Under the pieces are notes generated by a model. It did not search any database and was not told the DNA's origin. It saw nothing but the letters and a program-made list of their open reading frames with translations. Positions 1,553 to 58,354 of a stretch of DNA of 64,000 bases are shown in pieces. Source of the stretch: an uncultured bacterium. Lineage in GTDB: Bacteria; Patescibacteriota; Microgenomatia; UBA1400; MFAQ01. The stretch spans positions 39,502 through 103,501 of the forward strand of contig CAXBYW010000002.1 in the NCBI GenBank assembly GCA_963980225.1, given 5' to 3'. Numbering within the stretch: the first letter of the stretch is position 1; each line of letters begins with the position of its first letter. The translations under genes and the position numbers were made by a program.

Positions 1553-3292
1553 ATGAGTGAAATAGAAAAAAATAGAAGAGAGTTCGAGAATAGAAATAAA
1601 GAGTTTAGCAGACAAGATTTTTTGAATCTGTTGAAGGTTGTTGGTGCGGCTACAGTATTGACAGCTTGTGGTTTAGAGATAGATGGGAATACTCCTCAGG
1701 TTGAGCTTGATGAGTCTTTAAATGAACCGGTAGCTACAGAAGTAGCGCCTAGGGCGTCTTTTTCAGCTGAAATCAAGGAGAATGAAGATTTTGATGTTGC
1801 CCAATTTAGAACTGAGACAGGGGTTGAGTTAACAGATGAACAGATTGTTTCATTTGTGGTTGAAGTTGAGGGGGTAGATTTTGATTTTGTTGCCTTACCG
1901 GTAGTATTAGATGCAGAAGGGAAGATTGCAAGTGAAGAGAAGTTGTTTTTTCAGATGGGATCCTCTTGGGAAAGTTTGTTTAAAGGAGAGGTTGAGTCGG
2001 GAGATTTAGTTGTATGGCAAACACTACCAGATATTAGTGGTGAAGGAGGAGAGCCTGTGTTTTGGTATCCAGCTACAGAAGAAGGTTGGCAGTTACCAGA
2101 ATCAGGTATGGCTGCTTTTTCACCACCAACTAAGATGGAAGAAATGATACCGAACTACACAAGAAATCTTGATGGAGGAATCTATATTGATAGAGAAGCT
2201 TTTCCGGAGGGTATGAGGAGAGCATTGTTTTCTTTAACTCCGGTGGAGTGGGAAGGAATAGCACGCTTGGAAGAGCTTAGGTTGAGATTGGGAAATGTAG
2301 TCAGTGTAAAGATAATTGATGATAAGAATATGTTGATGTACAAGAGTGAGGTTGTGGGTGAGTTAATCGGAGAGAATGAGATAGGTATAGAGAGGGATGG
2401 TGAAATAATAAGCGTGTTTGATAACAGTTTGGAGCTTGGAGAAGATAACAGCCTGTTGTCTATTAATAAGGAAAGAACCGAGGAGATGGGTAAGGATTGG
2501 GTAGAGTGGGTATGGACAAAAGATGGAGAGAGATTGGAGGTACCTGAGCCAGTAGTAGGACTACCTGAGACCTTAGAAGAGGCTCGAGTGATTAATGAAA
2601 ATATCCTTGATTTTTATATGCCCAAGCTTACGGCTGCGGAGAAGGCGTATCTAGATGAGGTTGGGTGGGGAAGTAATAATATCTTTTTATCTAAGCCTGA
2701 TTATTATATTCCCGGTATTCCTTTTTATACCAGGGATATCCGTATAAGTACCAATGAGGACTCGGTACTTGAAGGTCAAGAAGATTTGCTGATTGTGGGA
2801 TTAACGAAGGTGCTCTTAAGTGAAGGGACGGAGCTATTGATGTACAGCGTTCCTGGTAAGGCAAGAGAAAGTAGCTTTGCTCAGTATGGTGGGGAAAATC
2901 TGGTTTTACATTTTGCATATAGTTTTGATGCATTTATAGAAAATTCAAGAAAAATGCATTCTGGAGTGATAAATGAAGGTTATTACAATGATCATTATGA
3001 ACCTGCATCTGTTTTAGCTCAGATGAATGATGGTTTGAAGTTTTCTACTATTAGGACGTTTTTTTCTACTAACCAAGAAGGTGTTAGAGGAGCAAGTCCG
3101 GAAGATAGGGATTCTTCTCAGTGGAACTACATTACCAGGTTCCTTGATGAGATGAATGAGGAGATAAATTTTAGTTACATATATGATAAGGAGATATATT
3201 ATCCACAAGGAGATATAGACGTTACAAGAGAGCAGATAGAAGGAATGCAGGAGATGATGTGGCCTGTAGTTTTTGTGAAGGCGGGTAAGTAG
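1553..3292 (+). CDS. acidic secreted lipoprotein, hypothetical
   Basis: N-terminal signal with lipobox LTAC (VLTACGL). Upstream TTGACA-N17-TAATAT promoter-like sequence. Highly acidic (D/E-rich) body. No enzyme motif recognised. Confidence 0.5.
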   Translation: MSEIEKNRREFENRNKEFSRQDFLNLLKVVGAATVLTACGLEIDGNTPQVELDESLNEPVATEVAPRASFSAEIKENEDFDVAQFRTETGVELTDEQIVSFVVEVEGVDFDFVALPVVLDAEGKIASEEKLFFQMGSSWESLFKGEVESGDLVVWQTLPDISGEGGEPVFWYPATEEGWQLPESGMAAFSPPTKMEEMIPNYTRNLDGGIYIDREAFPEGMRRALFSLTPVEWEGIARLEELRLRLGNVVSVKIIDDKNMLMYKSEVVGELIGENEIGIERDGEIISVFDNSLELGEDNSLLSINKERTEEMGKDWVEWVWTKDGERLEVPEPVVGLPETLEEARVINENILDFYMPKLTAAEKAYLDEVGWGSNNIFLSKPDYYIPGIPFYTRDIRISTNEDSVLEGQEDLLIVGLTKVLLSEGTELLMYSVPGKARESSFAQYGGENLVLHFAYSFDAFIENSRKMHSGVINEGYYNDHYEPASVLAQMNDGLKFSTIRTFFSTNQEGVRGASPEDRDSSQWNYITRFLDEMNEEINFSYIYDKEIYYPQGDIDVTREQIEGMQEMMWPVVFVKAGK

Positions 3293-3824: not shown

Positions 3825-6103
3825 AATTTATTATTGTCATTTTGGTGGTTGGTGTTCTTGGAAGCCTGATACGTCCCACTCCAGTGGAAGGGGCATTTCC
3901 TTGTGAAGACGTAGGTTATCAGTGTGGTGTGAATTCCCCCAATTGTTGGGATGAGTATTGTTCTTCTAGTTGTGGTGATGGTTGTTCCTTTGATTCTTGT
4001 TCTGGGGGGACGTGTAATTCATATTGTGACTGGAATAATTGCCCCGATGGTTGTAGATATCCGACAACTTCAGGTGGGGTGTGTAATGAGTGTACGGCGT
4101 ATTGTGATTCTAGTTGTGCTTATGGTTGTTCTTCTGAGTCTTGCTCTGGGGGTACATGCAACACACCTTCTTCTTGTGATGATTATTGCTGGAGTGGTTG
4201 TGCTTATGGTTGTTCTTCTGAAGACTGTGATGGTGGAGTGTGTAATTCGTCACCCACACCCACATCCACACCTACACCTACAAATGCTCCTGAGATTTGT
4301 AGTATCGACGAACTTACTTGTATTGATGGATATGAATATATATGTAGTGCGGATAGGACAGACTGGGATTATTTGAGAGCTTGTGCTTACGGTTGTGATA
4401 CTGCTGCCGACGTATGTAGTGTTTCGTCGTATTGTGAGGATGTGAGTTGTGGTGATTGTACTGCGGGTGGTGAGACTGGTTATAGGGTCATGTGTTGGTC
4501 TGATGAGACTCAAGAAGAGTTTCTTTGGGAGTCTTGCATAGCTTTTGATTCTGGCTATACACAGGATCAGTGTGAAACTCGTTTGGCGTCTAATGACCCT
4601 TGTCATGCTGTGAATGATACTTGTGGAGGACTGGCTTCTTGTGTGTTACCTTTGGTTTCACGTATAGATAGTTGTGGTTGGCAGGCGTGTGGTGTTGCTT
4701 GTGAACCACCACCAGTTGATGGAGGTGGTGATCCGGTCTGTGTTGCTAGTTATCCAGTGAAGGCGGTGTTGAGCTTGCCCGTTAGTGGAGGATCTACTGA
4801 TACTTTGAGTGTGAATCTTTCCTGGAGTCCGTCTACCGATTATGGGAATGGTTGTCCACAGAATAACGGTCAGACGGTGTTCTTGGAAGCGGGAGATAGT
4901 AGTCCGGATATTTGGGTGGCTTCTTTGTTTGCTAATGAAGGTTCGTATACAGCAAGTGGATTAGAGGGGAATAAGCAGTATTACTGGAGGGTGATGTCTA
5001 GTAATGGGTCTTTAGACATGTATTCGGATGTATATTCATTTATTACTCCAGGTATAGTTACGGGAACTTTATTTGATGCCTCTGATATTGACAGTTGTGC
5101 TTTAATGGGATCGGCACCAAAAATTTCTGGGTCTCTAGTTAATATTGTGGGAGGGGTAAGTTATGCACCAGTGACGGATGTCTTGGGTGTGTACTCACAG
5201 ATAGTGGGAGCACCAGATAGTTATGTGGTGACGCCGGTGGTGAGTGATCCATACAGTTCTACTCCTAAATTAACTTGCCAGGGAGCATCAGCTGATTTTG
5301 TGGTGGGTGGTCCGGAGACGGTAACCTTAGACTTTGGTTTTTGGAGGATTTATGGTGGTTGGTGGCAGGCCATTGGAGGGGATGTTTATGGTGGTGGGGG
5401 AATAGAGAGTGTTGTTCCGGTCGATGTGCCTGCAAATGAGAGATACTTAATTAAAAATGATGCTAACGGTAATGGAGGACTAGCGCAGTATGGTACTGGA
5501 GGAGTAATTGAGTTGGGTGATGGTGACGGAGTATACGTAAGTGAGAGTGGTTGGGAGGCAGAGAGTGGTTATGGTGGTCAGGATGTTAACTACGAGTACT
5601 ACACGGCCAAGATGAAGGTGTTGGAGAAGACGGTCTGGAGTGGTGTTGGTAAGCCAGTCTACAGTCCTGGTGTTGATGGATATGAGATTTATACATACAC
5701 AGGTGATGCAACGGTTAACTTTGATGTAAGTGGTGGGGAGAGAATGGTGTTTATGATTGACGGAAACGTAACGGTAAGTAGTGATGTGACGGTGGCTTTG
5801 GGGAGTCATTTAACGGTTATCTCTTCTGGAAATATTACCTTTGACAGTAACGTGGGAGAAGTACATGGATGGTGGGTAGCAGACAGGATAGTGATTGAGT
5901 CGACTGGGGACACGGCCACGGAGTTGCAGTTTAAAGGGGAAGGTAGTTTTGTTGGGTGGGATGCTGTCGAGCTTAATAGAGACAGAGGGGTGACTAACAA
6001 TACGGAGCCAGCCGAGGAGTTTACTTACAGGTCTGATTTGATGGTGAATGCTCCAAGAGCACTAAAGTTTTCTAGATACAAGTGGTTGGAGCAAGCGCCG
6101 TAG
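3812..6103 (+). CDS. large cysteine-rich repeat surface protein with PT linker, FN3-like and parallel beta-helix-like C-terminal region
   Basis: Signal/TM at N-terminus. About 300 aa with very high Cys content in repeated CxxxCxYGCSSExCxGGxCN units. PTPTSTPTPT linker. W...YYWRV FN3-like segment. C-terminal GNVTVSSDVTVALGSHLTVISSGNITFDSNVG beta-helix-like repeats. Confidence 0.6.
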   Translation: MQKLKFIIVILVVGVLGSLIRPTPVEGAFPCEDVGYQCGVNSPNCWDEYCSSSCGDGCSFDSCSGGTCNSYCDWNNCPDGCRYPTTSGGVCNECTAYCDSSCAYGCSSESCSGGTCNTPSSCDDYCWSGCAYGCSSEDCDGGVCNSSPTPTSTPTPTNAPEICSIDELTCIDGYEYICSADRTDWDYLRACAYGCDTAADVCSVSSYCEDVSCGDCTAGGETGYRVMCWSDETQEEFLWESCIAFDSGYTQDQCETRLASNDPCHAVNDTCGGLASCVLPLVSRIDSCGWQACGVACEPPPVDGGGDPVCVASYPVKAVLSLPVSGGSTDTLSVNLSWSPSTDYGNGCPQNNGQTVFLEAGDSSPDIWVASLFANEGSYTASGLEGNKQYYWRVMSSNGSLDMYSDVYSFITPGIVTGTLFDASDIDSCALMGSAPKISGSLVNIVGGVSYAPVTDVLGVYSQIVGAPDSYVVTPVVSDPYSSTPKLTCQGASADFVVGGPETVTLDFGFWRIYGGWWQAIGGDVYGGGGIESVVPVDVPANERYLIKNDANGNGGLAQYGTGGVIELGDGDGVYVSESGWEAESGYGGQDVNYEYYTAKMKVLEKTVWSGVGKPVYSPGVDGYEIYTYTGDATVNFDVSGGERMVFMIDGNVTVSSDVTVALGSHLTVISSGNITFDSNVGEVHGWWVADRIVIESTGDTATELQFKGEGSFVGWDAVELNRDRGVTNNTEPAEEFTYRSDLMVNAPRALKFSRYKWLEQAP

Positions 6104-41166: not shown

Positions 41167-41239
41167 GCGGGATTAGCTTAGTTGGCAGAGCACTTTCCTG
41201 CTCGGGAAGAGGTCACAGGTTCGAGTCCTGTATCCTGCT
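41167..41239 (+). tRNA. tRNA-like element 1 (class I cloverleaf; anticodon loop CUGCUCG lacks purine-37; identity unclear)
   Basis: 7-bp acceptor GCGGGAT/ATCCTGC. D-arm TAGCTTAGTTGGCAGAGC. Canonical T-arm ACAGG-TTCGAGT-CCTGT. Anticodon stem CTTTC/GGAAG with loop CTGCTCG (anticodon would be GCU, but the short variable arm is incompatible with tRNA-Ser). Confidence 0.5.
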
Positions 41240-41769: not shown

Positions 41770-41848
41770 GCGGGCTTAGCTCAGCTGGTAGAGCATTCCG
41801 GACATCACTGAAAGGAAAAGGTCACAGGTTCGAATCCTGTAGTCCGCT
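41770..41848 (+). tRNA. tRNA-like element 2 with enlarged, non-canonical anticodon arm (23 nt instead of 17)
   Basis: Acceptor GCGGGCT/AGTCCGC. D-arm TAGCTCAGCTGGTAGAGC. T-arm ACAGG-TTCGAAT-CCTGT. Region between D and variable arms is ttccggacatcactgaaaggaaa, which cannot form a 5-bp stem plus 7-nt loop. Confidence 0.4.
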
Positions 41849-55007: not shown

Positions 55008-55832
55008 ATGTCAAAAAGACTAAAATTTATATCGGTAGCTGGTGTGTTGGGGGTGTTTTTGTGGCTATCTAGTTTTGTGGTGGTTGAGAATCGGTTTACG
55101 ATGATACTTGCTGCTACCGCAGTTTCTTATGTCTTGTCTGTGTGGGTTTTGTTTGAGGATTTAAAGGGTATGGAATGGATTACTTTGATGATTTTGCCTG
55201 TCATGTTTACTTTGGGATTTGGCCTGTTTACTAACCTGTTGCCTGATGCGGTACCTAACTTATTAGGATTGAGATTTGAGATAGAAACGGCAATTGTGAT
55301 GGCTAAGGTGGTTAAGGGGATATTTGTTTTACTCTACATCTTGGGTCTATACGCAATATATCTTCTGGAAAATATTATCTCTGTGGCATCTATTAGAACA
55401 ATACAGCTTTTGAGGGCAGCTAGGTCCATGGGTTTTGTGATGAGTCTGGTGGTGTCTCTGTTCTTCTTTGCGGTGACTCTAAGCTTAAAACTACCGTTCT
55501 ATTGGATTGGTTTAAATTTAGCAGTAGTAAGTTATTTGTTATCTTATGGTCATTTGTGGAGTATTGACATTAAGGATGAAAGTAGGCGAGTGGTTAAGTT
55601 GTATAGTTTGACGATCGCTTTTTTAATGGGACTTTTGGGGGTAGTGATGGCCTTTTGGCCGGTGACGGCCTTTATGGGCGGTTTAATGATGACGGTATTC
55701 TTTTATACTCATCTGGGGATCTTAGAAAACTATTTGAAGCATCGCTCTCATGGAGAGTCCCTGGTTGAGTACTTGGTGTTTGGATTAATTATCTTTATTA
55801 TTGGATTTGCGACAACCTCCTGGCGAGGTTAA
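55008..55832 (+). CDS. hypothetical polytopic membrane protein
   Basis: 7-8 TM helices. Followed by palindromic hairpin gaatagattatctattc. Confidence 0.35.
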   Translation: MSKRLKFISVAGVLGVFLWLSSFVVVENRFTMILAATAVSYVLSVWVLFEDLKGMEWITLMILPVMFTLGFGLFTNLLPDAVPNLLGLRFEIETAIVMAKVVKGIFVLLYILGLYAIYLLENIISVASIRTIQLLRAARSMGFVMSLVVSLFFFAVTLSLKLPFYWIGLNLAVVSYLLSYGHLWSIDIKDESRRVVKLYSLTIAFLMGLLGVVMAFWPVTAFMGGLMMTVFFYTHLGILENYLKHRSHGESLVEYLVFGLIIFIIGFATTSWRG

Positions 55833-56687
55833 TGAATAGATTATCTATTCAACTTCAAAAAAAGTTTTTGATACGTCAACCCAAAGGGGGGGAGTGCTAT
55901 AGGGTCTTTAGGCCTATAATTATATATCCTATAAAACTGGGCTGTGTTTTCACGAAATATAGGTCTTTTCACGGCTAGCAGTCTATGTGGATAACTGCTG
56001 ATATAGAATGATATAGTTATGCGGCATAGGCAGAGGAGGGAGGATGACAGTGCTTGGAGAGGTAATTAAATGTAATTGGTGGTCGCCACTCCCTAGTAGA
56101 GGTCCCTGAAGTATTTTCTTTAATAATTTTTTTTTGGTGGTTGACACTTCCCTTTTGCAATAGAGGAGAGCTAAACCAGAATGATATATAGAGTGTCGTA
56201 CAATGTTACTTATGCGACGTCACCTTGGAGCGATTGTGGAACAGTAGTGGTTGTCCTCGACTTTGGTAATCTGTATAAAATCCCGAAGAGATTTGTTACT
56301 TGACTGTTTACGCTTACTATCCCCTTGATTGTTGGTGCATGAAGTTACTTAAGGGCTTGATTGGTTGATTTATAGATTAACCCGAATGTTTTAATCCAAA
56401 AAATATCAAACTAGTCATTGGGATGCGGTGATCGAGATGTACTTAATCATAAAGAAAGTCAGGGGCCGTTTTAGGGGCATTAGAAGGGCTTGTAGCCTCG
56501 AAATACTGTGTTTTAAGGCATGATTTTAACGTTTGCCATGTGTTCTTGTGCTTGACATGTAAACTTTAAGATTAACAATGAATTAAAGATTGAGTATCAT
56601 AACTTGGTACTTGTTTCACTGTGGCGGTGAACAGATTCTTGTCTCCCTTTGGGAACAGGACGTGGACAACATTTTGTTGTTCTGCAT

Positions 56688-56762
56688 TAAAGGTGAATAA
56701 TTTTTCTAGAGAGCTTTTTTCTCAAGCAAACTTTATTCACCTTTTTTATTTTTTGTATTTCA
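56688..56762 (+). terminator. putative intrinsic terminator (long stem-loop plus T-rich run)
   Basis: aggtgaataa...ttattcacct inverted repeat followed by ttttttattttttg. Confidence 0.3.
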
Positions 56763-56848
56763 GTCGATATTTAGCATATAAAAATATATAGGATATTATC
56801 TCTAAAAAAAAGGTTACCCCCCTACCCCACTGGTGGTATCGAAAAATA

Positions 56849-56877
56849 TTGACAGATGAATACTTGTTCAATATAAT
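56849..56877 (+). promoter_or_regulatory. perfect-consensus sigma70 promoter in noncoding region
   Basis: TTGACA (56849-56854), 17-nt spacer, TATAAT (56872-56877). Confidence 0.5.
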
Positions 56878-57409
56878 TCTTTCTTACACAACCTTGGAGG
56901 TAACTACCGATGCGTAAGAGCCTACCAAAAGCCGTTGTGAAGAGATCTGTAGAAGGTGATTATCGACAATCATCGAGCAGGCCAGGATTCGGACCTGGTA
57001 CCTCATCCAATGGCGTAAAAAGTTGACTTGTCCAACCCCTAATCCTTTATATTTAGGGCAAGTCAACCGCAAATTAATAATCTCAGACAATGTTTGTAAT
57101 GTGGACAAAAAAAGTCTGAGAATATATAACTTGGAGGAACCACAATGCGTAGACCTCCCCCCTTTAGGGTACGACCAAGAAGTCGGACTTCTTCACGAAG
57201 GAGCCGAACTTTTTCGAGTCGACCCTCACTGTCGCAATCGCGACGTAGCGGTCGAAGCTGCGGGCCAGATGAAGGATCTGGTATCCGTATTTAGCTTCTG
57301 ACTGTAACAACTATACGGCCAATCATTCTTATTTAAAAGATTTTCAAGAATGGTTGGCCAGTTTTTTGTTCTTTGCATGTCGCACATTGGAATGTGCTAG
57401 TATTGAGTT

Positions 57410-58354
57410 ATGGCGAAAGAAAAAAAAGAAGAACAAGTTTTAAGCAAGCTAATATCAAAATATTTAAGACATATTGAGCTAGAGAAGAATTACTCACCCT
57501 ATACCTTAAGGAACTATAAATATTATTTAAACTTTTTTAAAAATTGGTTTGAGAAGAAATATGAACAGGAGTATATCCAGAGGTTGACGAGTGAGATGGT
57601 AAGTAGTTATCGGTTGCACTTATCTAGACACGAGGATGAAAAAGGTAAGGGTTTGTCTGCGGCCACCCAAAGCTATTACATCATTTCCTTGAGGGCATTT
57701 TTAAAGTTTTTAGCAAAGAAAGGAATTAAAAGTTTGAGTGCAGAGAAAATAGATTTACCAAAAGTGGGTAGTAGGCAGATTAAGTTTCTAACTAGAGACC
57801 AAGTAGAGAGGCTACTAACGACTCCAGACTTGACAACAGTAAATGGCTTAAGAGATAGAACGATTTTGGAGGTATTATTCAGTACAGGTTTAAGGGTAAG
57901 TGAGATGGCTAAGCTCAATAGAGACAAGATTGATTTGAAAGCCAAGGAGTTTGGGATTATTGGAAAAGGTCGACGATCTAGAGTTGTGTTTTTAACGGAG
58001 AGATCTTGTGATTGGCTCAAAAGATACTTAAGTACAAGAGACGATCAATATAAACCATTGTGGATTAGATATTCTGGTAAGGCGGCTGATATCACCTCTT
58101 CTGGCGATAGTATGAGACTGTCTGTAAGAAGTATTCAAAGATTGGTCGAGAAATATAGAAGATTGGCGGGACTACCAATGAAGGTTAGCCCACACACCTT
58201 GAGACATTCTACTGCCACTACCCTACTCTCTTCCGGAGCAAATTTGAGATCTGTCCAAGAAATTTTGGGACATAAAAATGTAGCCACTACTCAGATATAT
58301 ACTCATATCACTAACCCCCAGTTAAAGAAAATCCACGAGAAATACTTGAAGTAA
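57410..58354 (+). CDS. tyrosine site-specific recombinase XerC/XerD-like
   Basis: N-terminal SAM-like core-binding domain. C-terminal HTLRHSTATTLLSSGANLRSVQEILGHKNVATTQIYTHI (HxxR...Y catalytic motifs). R in LRVSE box. Confidence 0.85.
   Translation: MAKEKKEEQVLSKLISKYLRHIELEKNYSPYTLRNYKYYLNFFKNWFEKKYEQEYIQRLTSEMVSSYRLHLSRHEDEKGKGLSAATQSYYIISLRAFLKFLAKKGIKSLSAEKIDLPKVGSRQIKFLTRDQVERLLTTPDLTTVNGLRDRTILEVLFSTGLRVSEMAKLNRDKIDLKAKEFGIIGKGRRSRVVFLTERSCDWLKRYLSTRDDQYKPLWIRYSGKAADITSSGDSMRLSVRSIQRLVEKYRRLAGLPMKVSPHTLRHSTATTLLSSGANLRSVQEILGHKNVATTQIYTHITNPQLKKIHEKYLK

Follow-up and report, generated by a model that had tools for sequence, protein, structure and literature searches.

A putative dif-type target site and a variable structured segment upstream of an xer gene in a Microgenomates-type bacterium

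The stretch of DNA analyzed here (64,000 nucleotides (nt), hereafter "the window") comes from a Patescibacteria genome (Candidate Phyla Radiation, CPR) of the Microgenomates type. The subject of this study is a gap in the window at positions 55833-57409, which is flanked on the left by the gene of a DUF5656 membrane protein (55008-55832, + strand) and on the right by xer (57410-58354, +), the gene of a Xer-family tyrosine recombinase (Pfam Phage_integrase, 5e-42, plus SAM_1). On the 3' side of xer, gyrA, a DHH-family gene and gyrB are located on the opposite strand. A first-pass annotation of the locus had described the gap as free of a convincing protein gene, and this was borne out: the longest open reading frame (ORF) in it has 92 amino acids (aa). 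The gap was divided into three parts. Region A (55909-56522) is non-coding, is conserved across Microgenomates relatives, and carries a 28-bp core (56193-56220, +) together with arrays of short motifs; region B (56523-57375) is variable and rich in predicted hairpins; and region C (57376-57409) is the xer promoter. Judged from the sequence and its relatives, the gap probably combines the control region and the target of a linked xer-dif module with a fast-evolving structured RNA unit.

The Xer protein (314 aa) was scored against the NCBIfam models, and it fell below every equivalog cut-off (given in parentheses): 238.8 bits for XerC (335), 234.5 for XerD (330), 201.9 for XerA (220), and 117 for XerS (267). 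The XerC and XerD scores are about equal; such near-equal scores beneath the cut-offs are as expected for a putative single-recombinase system. No second xer gene was found within the window. The closest solved structures are those of XerD (1a0p) and of an archaeal XerA-type protein (4a8e). The Xer of the nearest genome record (a metagenome-assembled genome labelled "Patescibacteria group bacterium") is 91% identical, and more remote homologues are labelled Collierbacteria, Woesebacteria, and Beckwithbacteria. The order yebC-DUF5656-gap with core-xer-gyrA is retained in relatives down to an Xer identity of ca. 50%. In these syntenic relatives the gap is 0.6-2.3 kb long, and in one more case genes are inserted in it. 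In 10 metagenome contigs with an identical Xer, the gap was 100% identical in every one, so patterns of single-nucleotide polymorphism carried no comparative signal. Other loci are given below by number (e.g. L011) where they must be told apart.

The best-conserved island of the whole gap is the imperfect palindrome GTGTCGTACAATGTTACTTATGCGACGT (56193-56220), i.e. GTGTCGTACAA-TGTTAC-TTATGCGACGT, with a left arm of 11 bp, a center of 6 bp, and a right arm of 11 bp. The window, L152, L011, L153, and L154 agree at its positions 2-28 (27/28), against an identity of only 60-76% in the flanks. The core is single in the window when up to three mismatches are allowed, and shuffled sequences gave 0 matches. 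A degenerate 24-nt search pattern was built from nine relatives and was matched by at least 120 contigs of the metagenome collection. From 81 unique, orientation-defined loci among the metagenome matches listed, the family consensus AYGTCGCACAA-TATATC-TTTTRCGACRT was obtained (the left arm being AY followed by GTCGCACAA). Conservation stops exactly 2 nt outside the 24-nt pattern on both sides, which gives 11 + 6 + 11 = 28 bp; the 6-bp center is asymmetric and conserved. Sites of the dif type have 28-31 bp, inverted arms of ca. 11 bp, and a center of 6-8 (up to 11) bp, and the core has this geometry. We read 56193-56220 as the candidate dif-type target of the adjacent Xer recombinase.

An RNA hairpin was also considered for the core. 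A U-G / C-G / U-A covariation present in the first nine sequences vanished when the 81 loci were compared: the two variable arm positions were C,G in 36 loci, C,A in 36, T,G in 5, and T,A in 4, i.e. they vary independently. Past ±2 nt, the outer flanks of the core are not complementary (mean duplex z score of -0.24 over the 81 loci). Independent variation of the arms and non-complementary flanks exclude an RNA or cruciform stem, and the core is thus a double-stranded DNA site.

Two other occurrences of arm-like sequence were observed. In the GC-rich segment of region B, GTCGCAATCGCGAC (57232-57245) repeats the outer bases of the core arms (GTCGCA / GCGAC) with a spacer of only 3-4 nt, and it may be a chance match or a degenerate pseudo-site. 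Extra half-sites (GTCGYA... / ...TRCGAC) are located downstream of the full core, within ca. 100 nt or less, in L088, L127, L139, L142, and L151; these resemble arrays of accessory or remnant recombinase-binding arms.

The last ca. 35 nt before xer are conserved in relatives. This promoter region (57373-57409, +) holds a dif half-site, GTCGCACATT (57379-57388), and a -10-like TAGTAT (57398-57403). The half-site is found 20-30 nt before the xer start in the window, L011, L012, L013, L152-L155, and L157. A recombination or dif-like site had been among the possibilities raised for the gap in the first-pass annotation. Such a site was found, in the form of the core and this half-site, at none of the features to which that annotation had pointed. 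The xer gene has no Shine-Dalgarno sequence, and TAnTAT stands ca. 6 nt before the ATG in the window (57398-57412), L011, L012, L013, and L152-L157. A -10-like box at this distance from the start codon, with no Shine-Dalgarno sequence, suggests a leaderless or near-leaderless xer mRNA.

The functions assigned here to the core, its flanks, and region B are predictions from sequence. Two subunits of the adjacent Xer would bind the 28-bp core, and the recombinase would then pair two copies of the core and exchange strands. As the outcome, chromosome dimers would be resolved, or other DNA bearing a core would be recombined. Binding of Xer at the promoter half-site would repress xer itself (putative autoregulation). 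The ca. 290 nt upstream and ca. 300 nt downstream of the core would serve as accessory or regulatory DNA.

The core family was detected in at least 120 metagenome contigs, with one copy per contig except in the concatemer L073, and it was intergenic in every metagenome locus with usable flanks. An xer match was present within the fetched locus in 17 of the 120 metagenome loci listed and stood directly beside the core in 16 of them; one or more genes of the yebC-DUF5656-xer-gyrA synteny were present in 21. The xer genes adjoining the core include those of distant Xer proteins (28-31% and 45% identical to that of the window). The distance from the core to the xer start is 1190 nt in the window and 340 nt in L011. 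Linkage of a site to its recombinase gene is a hallmark of the single-recombinase systems XerS/difSL and XerH/difH (PMC5357621), and such linkage was found here. At loci without an adjacent xer, the immediate neighbors converge in 15 of 22 usable cases (P = 2.5e-5 against 25%), and in other CPR lineages long runs of genes switch orientation (+++|---) at the core, as expected of a replication terminus.

The concatemer L073 is a 7.5-kb contig with three identical cores (772-795, 3170-3193, and 5568-5591; period 2398 bp). It resembles a concatemer assembled from a circular element of 2.4 kb, on which a small helix-turn-helix protein is encoded.

The core family also occurs in at least 120 IMG/VR viral contigs (L158-L277). 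It is intergenic in 103 of the 120 listed, often at the boundary of divergent modules beside terminase genes. A Xer-like gene was present within the fetched locus in only 2 of the 120 listed, at 629 and 2805 nt from the core. This distribution is compatible with, and is not proof of, the exploitation of a host Xer by phages and small replicons.

A different reading of the 28-bp palindrome is that of an operator for a dimeric transcription factor, or of a site for a partition- or termination-type protein, in which case its link to xer would be regulatory only. Inverted repeats of this size are typical of operators; moreover, a half-site lies within the xer promoter, the site is located away from any skew switch (see below), and the viral cores lie between divergent modules, a common place for operators. 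Nevertheless, we consider an operator unlikely. The center of the site is asymmetric and conserved, and the 11 + 6 + 11 architecture matches the core sites of tyrosine recombinases. The core occurs once per contig and lies between convergent genes, where no promoter needs regulating, and it recurs beside very different xer genes; the viral carriers are mostly without a recombinase of their own.

Region A is 68-76% identical at the same position in L011, L152, L153, and L154 (the Xer proteins of which are 87-92% identical), and collinear islands of it were found in L012, L013, L015, L016, L018, L020, and L156. No reading frame is open across the relatives in region A; each is stopped in some relative. 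A 40-aa ORF spanning the core, in which the changes relative to L011 were apparently synonymous, was rejected, as it is stopped in L152, L011, L156, and L013. Upstream of the core, a motif array (55913-56016, +) comprises two copies of CCTATAA (55913 and 55928), two of TTTTCACG (55947 and 55966), a DnaA-box-like TGTGGATAA (55986-55994; the perfect complement of a DnaA box), and two of TGATATAG (55999 and 56009). This set recurs 150-500 nt before the core in most loci of the window's synteny class. Downstream islands (56281-56500, +) are AAAATCCCGAAGAG, TAGATTAACCCGAA, and GCCGTTTTAGGGGCATTAGAAGGGCTTGTAGCC, at +86, +185, and +270 from the core, respectively. Their columns are invariant in the alignment of relatives, and TCCCGAA and ACCCGAA lie exactly at +86 and +185 in the window, L011, L012, and L013. 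By analogy with the plasmid sites cer and psi, the flanks in region A may be accessory or regulatory DNA.

At ca. +240 from the core, the ca. 11-nt TACTTAATCAT (56437-56451) is present as its reverse complement, ATGATTAAGTA, in L011 and L013, with collinear surroundings. A small inversion has taken place here, a type of event that is linked to hairpin loops.

The DnaA-box-like motif is polar. The box at 55986-55994 is one of two perfect TTATCCACA matches in the 64 kb. In the 84 unique loci compared, the 9-mer was found in the forward orientation within 500 nt upstream of the core in 24 and downstream in 0, and its reverse complement within 500 nt downstream in 9 and upstream in 0. TGTGGAWAA is thus directed at the core, on one side or the other, in the window, L011-L154, L050, L070, L076, L099, L116, L123, L135, L140, and L147. 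The xer-dif reading accounts neither for this polarity nor for the position of the core off a skew switch.

The first-pass annotation had suggested a large non-coding RNA (ncRNA) of the transfer-messenger RNA (tmRNA) or RNase P class for this locus. In its broader form, this explanation makes the gap, in full or in its conserved half only, a gene for a large structured ncRNA, be it a divergent tmRNA, RNase P, or 6S RNA, or a new RNA of the OLE/ROOL/GOLLD kind. The region is indeed long, non-coding, and syntenically conserved, and the RNAs of CPR bacteria are often divergent and able to escape covariance models. However, at the gathering threshold Rfam returned only tRNAs for the whole window, and at E<=10 the gap yielded only noise (best scores of 16-22 bits with E>1, to models of eukaryotic microRNAs and small nucleolar RNAs). 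Twelve syntenic relatives and 11 motif-bearing contigs likewise gave tRNAs only, with no Rfam match in the gaps of the 12, and ARAGORN detected no tmRNA. The conserved half folds like its shuffles (z = -0.2 to +1.5 for region A); the excess of folding is restricted to the 3' portion of the gap, with z ca. 0 for 55880-56520. The core tolerates C.A as often as C-G, and the same 28-mer stands alone in unrelated intergenic contexts. An ncRNA gene of this kind is extremely unlikely, and the tmRNA/RNase P suggestion was dropped.

Several observations weigh against the core being a dif site. Normally, dif is located at the GC-skew shift point (PMC3025954). No such shift accompanies the core in the window: the GC skew is ca. 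+0.4 in 2-kb intervals, and it is exceptionally strong and uniform over positions 1-64000 and, in L001, up to the window-equivalent position 68354. The skew at third codon positions on the + strand is +0.26 to +0.6 on both sides of the core, in genes of both strands (+0.3 to +0.75 when taken over the whole stretch). No change of sign, in raw or third-position skew, was found over 68 kb (56 kb to the left and 11 kb to the right), nor was one found in the other loci of the window's synteny class. Even in the lineages in which gene orientation switches at the core, the change of skew across it is inconsistent. The right arm, TTATGCGACGT (TTTTRCGACRT in the family), is unlike the conserved XerD arm TTATGTTAAAT / TTATGTAAACT beyond its first five bases, TTATG. 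Contig breaks at the core, as active recombination might leave them, were looked for: in the metagenome set, the core is not enriched at contig ends (15 cases against 14.6 expected), and near the ends of the viral contigs it is only modestly so (18 against 7.2 expected). A role in packaging or replication would also fit the core in the viral contigs.

The G-rich + strand on both sides of the core indicates that the site is not at a terminus in this lineage, or that replication here is unusual. Under one proposal, which we regard as unlikely on present evidence, the xer-dif system of Microgenomates-type CPR bacteria has been uncoupled from the terminus: the sole Xer site would lie in mid-replichore beside gyrA/gyrB, in ca. 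600 nt of accessory DNA with a DnaA box pointing at the core, and dimers would be resolved via local accessory proteins, possibly DnaA, rather than via FtsK translocation. More radically, replication could be unidirectional, with its origin and its terminus both at this locus.

Related to this is the explanation of region A as the chromosomal origin, or as an origin next to dif in a unidirectional chromosome, with the DnaA box and the repeats as initiator sites. The perfect box at 55986-55994 is conserved in position and orientation, genes with roles in replication are nearby (dnaB, gyrA/B, holB, dnaX, ssb, and topA), and skew of the same sign on both sides is also expected of a unidirectional replicon. 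Yet unchanged skew is what any mid-replichore locus shows, and there is no change of sign. Region A has one consensus box; the two matches with one mismatch in the gap (56960 and 57100) fall in region B, and no excess is seen over the whole window, with 25 DnaA boxes against 19.4 expected. No dnaA-like gene was recognized in the 68 kb. In other lineages, the linked core sits where genes converge and not where they diverge. We therefore hold an origin in region A to be very unlikely.

With the core read as a dif-type site, the locus was compared with known systems. The XerS/difSL system of streptococci and lactococci is alike in that one Xer-family recombinase adjoins its own chromosomal target as one module (PMC5357621), the site is an imperfect inverted repeat, and the recombinase differs from the canonical XerC and XerD. 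The differences are that difSL has 31 bp, an 11-bp center, and the arms TTTCCGAAAA / TTTTCTTGAAA, whereas the window site has 28 bp and a 6-bp center; that XerS has ca. 356 aa, and the window Xer scores 117 bits on the NCBIfam XerS model against 239 on that of XerC; that difSL is at the replichore junction, whereas the window site is away from a skew switch; and that the distance between site and gene is 0.35-1.2 kb here, inside ca. 600 nt of conserved DNA. XerH/difH (Helicobacter, Campylobacter) shares a single recombinase, a site near its gene, and inverted arms of ca. 10-11 bp, but its arms are AGTTATGAAAA / AAAAGTTTGA, XerH has 354-362 aa, and no relationship at the level of sequence was shown.

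In Sulfolobus, too, the dif site is not known to be tied to replication termination zones. Archaeal XerA/dif resembles the present module in its 28-bp site and one recombinase, and it acts without a need for FtsK (PMC5357621). The window Xer comes near XerA (202 bits against a cut-off of 220) and matches XerA-type structures; it differs in having a bacterial host, other arm sequences, and a score under the XerA equivalog cut-off. The dif site of E. coli (GGTGCGCATAA-TGTATA-TTATGTTAAAT) has the same 11 + 6 + 11 geometry. Read as its reverse complement, ACGTCGCATAA, the right arm of the window site has CGCATAA in common with the E. coli XerC arm, the right arm itself begins with TTATG, as does the XerD arm, and palindromic variants of the core in other loci have a TGTATA center identical to that of E. 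coli dif. Unlike canonical XerCD/dif, the window site lacks the conserved XerD arm and is away from the skew shift point. Its two arms belong to a single type and so imply one recombinase. Finally, the plasmid sites cer and psi are similar in that a core site lies within a few hundred bp of conserved non-coding DNA with motifs at fixed spacing. The window site differs in having motifs on both sides of the core and in being chromosomal, and its accessory function would be an inferred one; no ArgR, PepA, or ArcA boxes were identified at it.

The length of region B varies among relatives: it is 0 nt in L156, ca. 40 in L011, ca. 450 in L152 and L153, ca. 690 in L154, and ca. 850 in the window. Across the gap, 13 promoter-like sites were counted against 6.3 ± 2.0 in shuffles (about twice as many), in keeping with the several promoter-like boxes reported earlier. 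The first unit of region B (56552-56760, +) has two such sites (56552-56579 and 56572-56600), followed by ca. 150 nt of hairpins (fold z = -5.1 for 56600-56759), and is closed by a stem (56689-56705 / 56728-56744; 88% complementary) and a T-run. No alignable counterpart of this unit was found in relatives. The control region of the second unit (56786-56877, +) comprises TATATAGGATATT (56786-56798), CCCCCCTACCCC (56818-56829), and TTGACA-N17-TATAAT (56849-56877). The last of these had been noted before as a perfect promoter, and it was confirmed as the sole 12/12 match in the gap. It is retained in L154 (TTGACA-N17-TATAAT) and L152 (TTTACA-N17-TATAAT), and TATATAGGRTATT does not vary among the window, L152, L153, and L154.

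The structured, transcript-like unit that follows (56884-57372, +) contains hairpins at 56979-57003, 57022-57067, and 57077-57125 and GC-rich nested hairpins at 57130-57300. Its terminal stem (57306-57330 / 57346-57370) is followed by TTTTTT. A strict scan of the gap gave 0 terminators; both stems with T-runs fail the strict rule because their loops are 22 and 15 nt long. Thus, of the terminator-like stem-loop that had been placed at 56688-56762, the stem and T-run exist, but its 22-nt loop does not satisfy the rule. The fold z was -8.55 for 56884-57375, with 0/100 shuffles as stable, and -4.5 to -6.4 across 57020-57420. The GC content at 57140-57300 peaks at 0.50 (200-nt intervals) or 0.56 (120-nt intervals) against ca. 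0.39 locally, and it is equalled by a few coding stretches elsewhere in the window. The earlier description of 57130-57300 as a GC-rich hairpin segment accordingly holds for its composition and strong folding, but its GC content is not unique.

When the unit was compared with L154, 6 of the 39 predicted pairs had both partners changed, 8 had one partner changed, and 0 were broken; the one-sided changes give G.U pairs, which are possible only on the + strand. Stability beyond shuffles and compensatory pairs, as looked for in a structured RNA, were thus found for 56884-57372 in a comparison of two sequences. With only two sequences behind it, the covariation is suggestive and not proof, which counts against the RNA part of the reading. 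The CCCCTACCC motif and several hairpins are common to the relatives, at the same position. In the GC-rich 3' part, GGGTACGA, CACGAAGG, TCACTGT, and the hairpin GGGCCAGATGAAGGATCTGG are present in L152 as well as in the window. Region B is probably a fast-evolving structured RNA or leader, unclassified and lineage-restricted. The consensus promoter within it would drive synthesis of a hairpin-rich RNA that may carry a short translated leader and that would end at the stem and T-run before xer. A further, unlikely possibility is that it represents a new class of RNA that takes part in, or regulates, recombination.

Region B (56523-57375) could alternatively be the remnant of a mobile element (an IMEX, which is a mobile element that integrates by making use of Xer, or a dif module) integrated by Xer at the promoter-proximal half-site; a remnant of integrated foreign DNA had also been proposed in the first-pass annotation. 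Its absence from L156 and near-absence from L011, set against 450-850 nt in other close relatives, would fit such an event, as would its location directly upstream of the dif half-site, its locally high GC content, and a short repeat, (A)TGTG(T/C)T, at both junctions. However, BLAST gave no match to region B in phage and plasmid collections, no match was found in the fetched loci past close relatives, and there is no copy of it elsewhere in the window. A half-site is present at the right edge only, and neither another full core nor a repeat was found in the rest of the window. The promoter, TATATAGGRTATT, CCCCTACCC, and several hairpins are common to relatives, which argues for vertical descent with rapid turnover. 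Patchy homology at the same position in close relatives indicates a resident, fast-evolving segment and not a recent import; we regard a mobile-element remnant as quite unlikely, and the foreign-DNA proposal did not hold up.

Small proteins were also considered. Under this explanation, region B encodes one or two of them, and the hairpins are incidental or regulatory. Two ORFs preceded by ribosome-binding sites are open in region B, namely ORF1 (56910-57026, +; 38 aa) and ORF2 (57145-57294, +; 49 aa, rich in Arg and Ser), each with GGAGG 7-9 nt before its ATG. L154 has an ORF of exactly 38 codons, likewise preceded by a ribosome-binding site, in the same place. The frame of ORF2 is open in L152, where it ends in ...GPDEGSGLRV, and in the GC-rich part, the insertions and deletions that separate L152 from the window have lengths divisible by three. 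The two ORFs and these lengths tell against a purely structural RNA. On the other hand, the codon usage of ORF2 is off-frame-like and that of ORF1 borderline, and neither belongs to a Pfam or NCBIfam family. The nucleotides homologous to ORF1 are read in another frame in L154 than in the window, and the predicted fold has the GGAGG boxes in base pairs. Coding by region B is accordingly doubtful, and the structured RNA or leader is preferred. A 92-aa ORF called by gene finders (57023-57301) was rejected: it had only self matches among 5.8 billion proteins, with none outside its own species, and no Pfam or NCBIfam family, and its frame is stopped in L152.

Taken as a whole, the element is predicted to be a single-recombinase xer-dif module, a known kind of system, in a sequence form that is new, and it leaves the established logic of Xer recombination intact. 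In the open-access literature, no paper was found that links a dif site or Xer with the Candidate Phyla Radiation. As the 28-bp consensus is present in many CPR-like contigs, it could be used as a marker to locate the Xer target in uncultured genomes, and it could aid in checking genome closure and in recognizing phages, plasmids, and integrative elements that rely on the recombinase of the host. A site tied to xer and not to a skew switch would place this lineage with the single-recombinase systems, maybe independent of FtsK.

Some minor features remain to be recorded. Just after the DUF5656 stop codon, the palindrome GAATAGAT-T-ATCTATTC (55834-55850, +) was read from the sequence, with an A/T run next to it; it is the hairpin that had been reported after the upstream gene, and it may mark the 3' end of that gene. 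Elsewhere in the window, two unusual tRNAs were observed. The first (41167-41239; 73 nt) has the anticodon GCT (Ser) and no long variable arm, and the second (41770-41848; 79 nt) is a tRNA-Met with 19 positions in the anticodon region against 13 in the model, an excess of 6 nt. The T-arms of the two are nearly the same.

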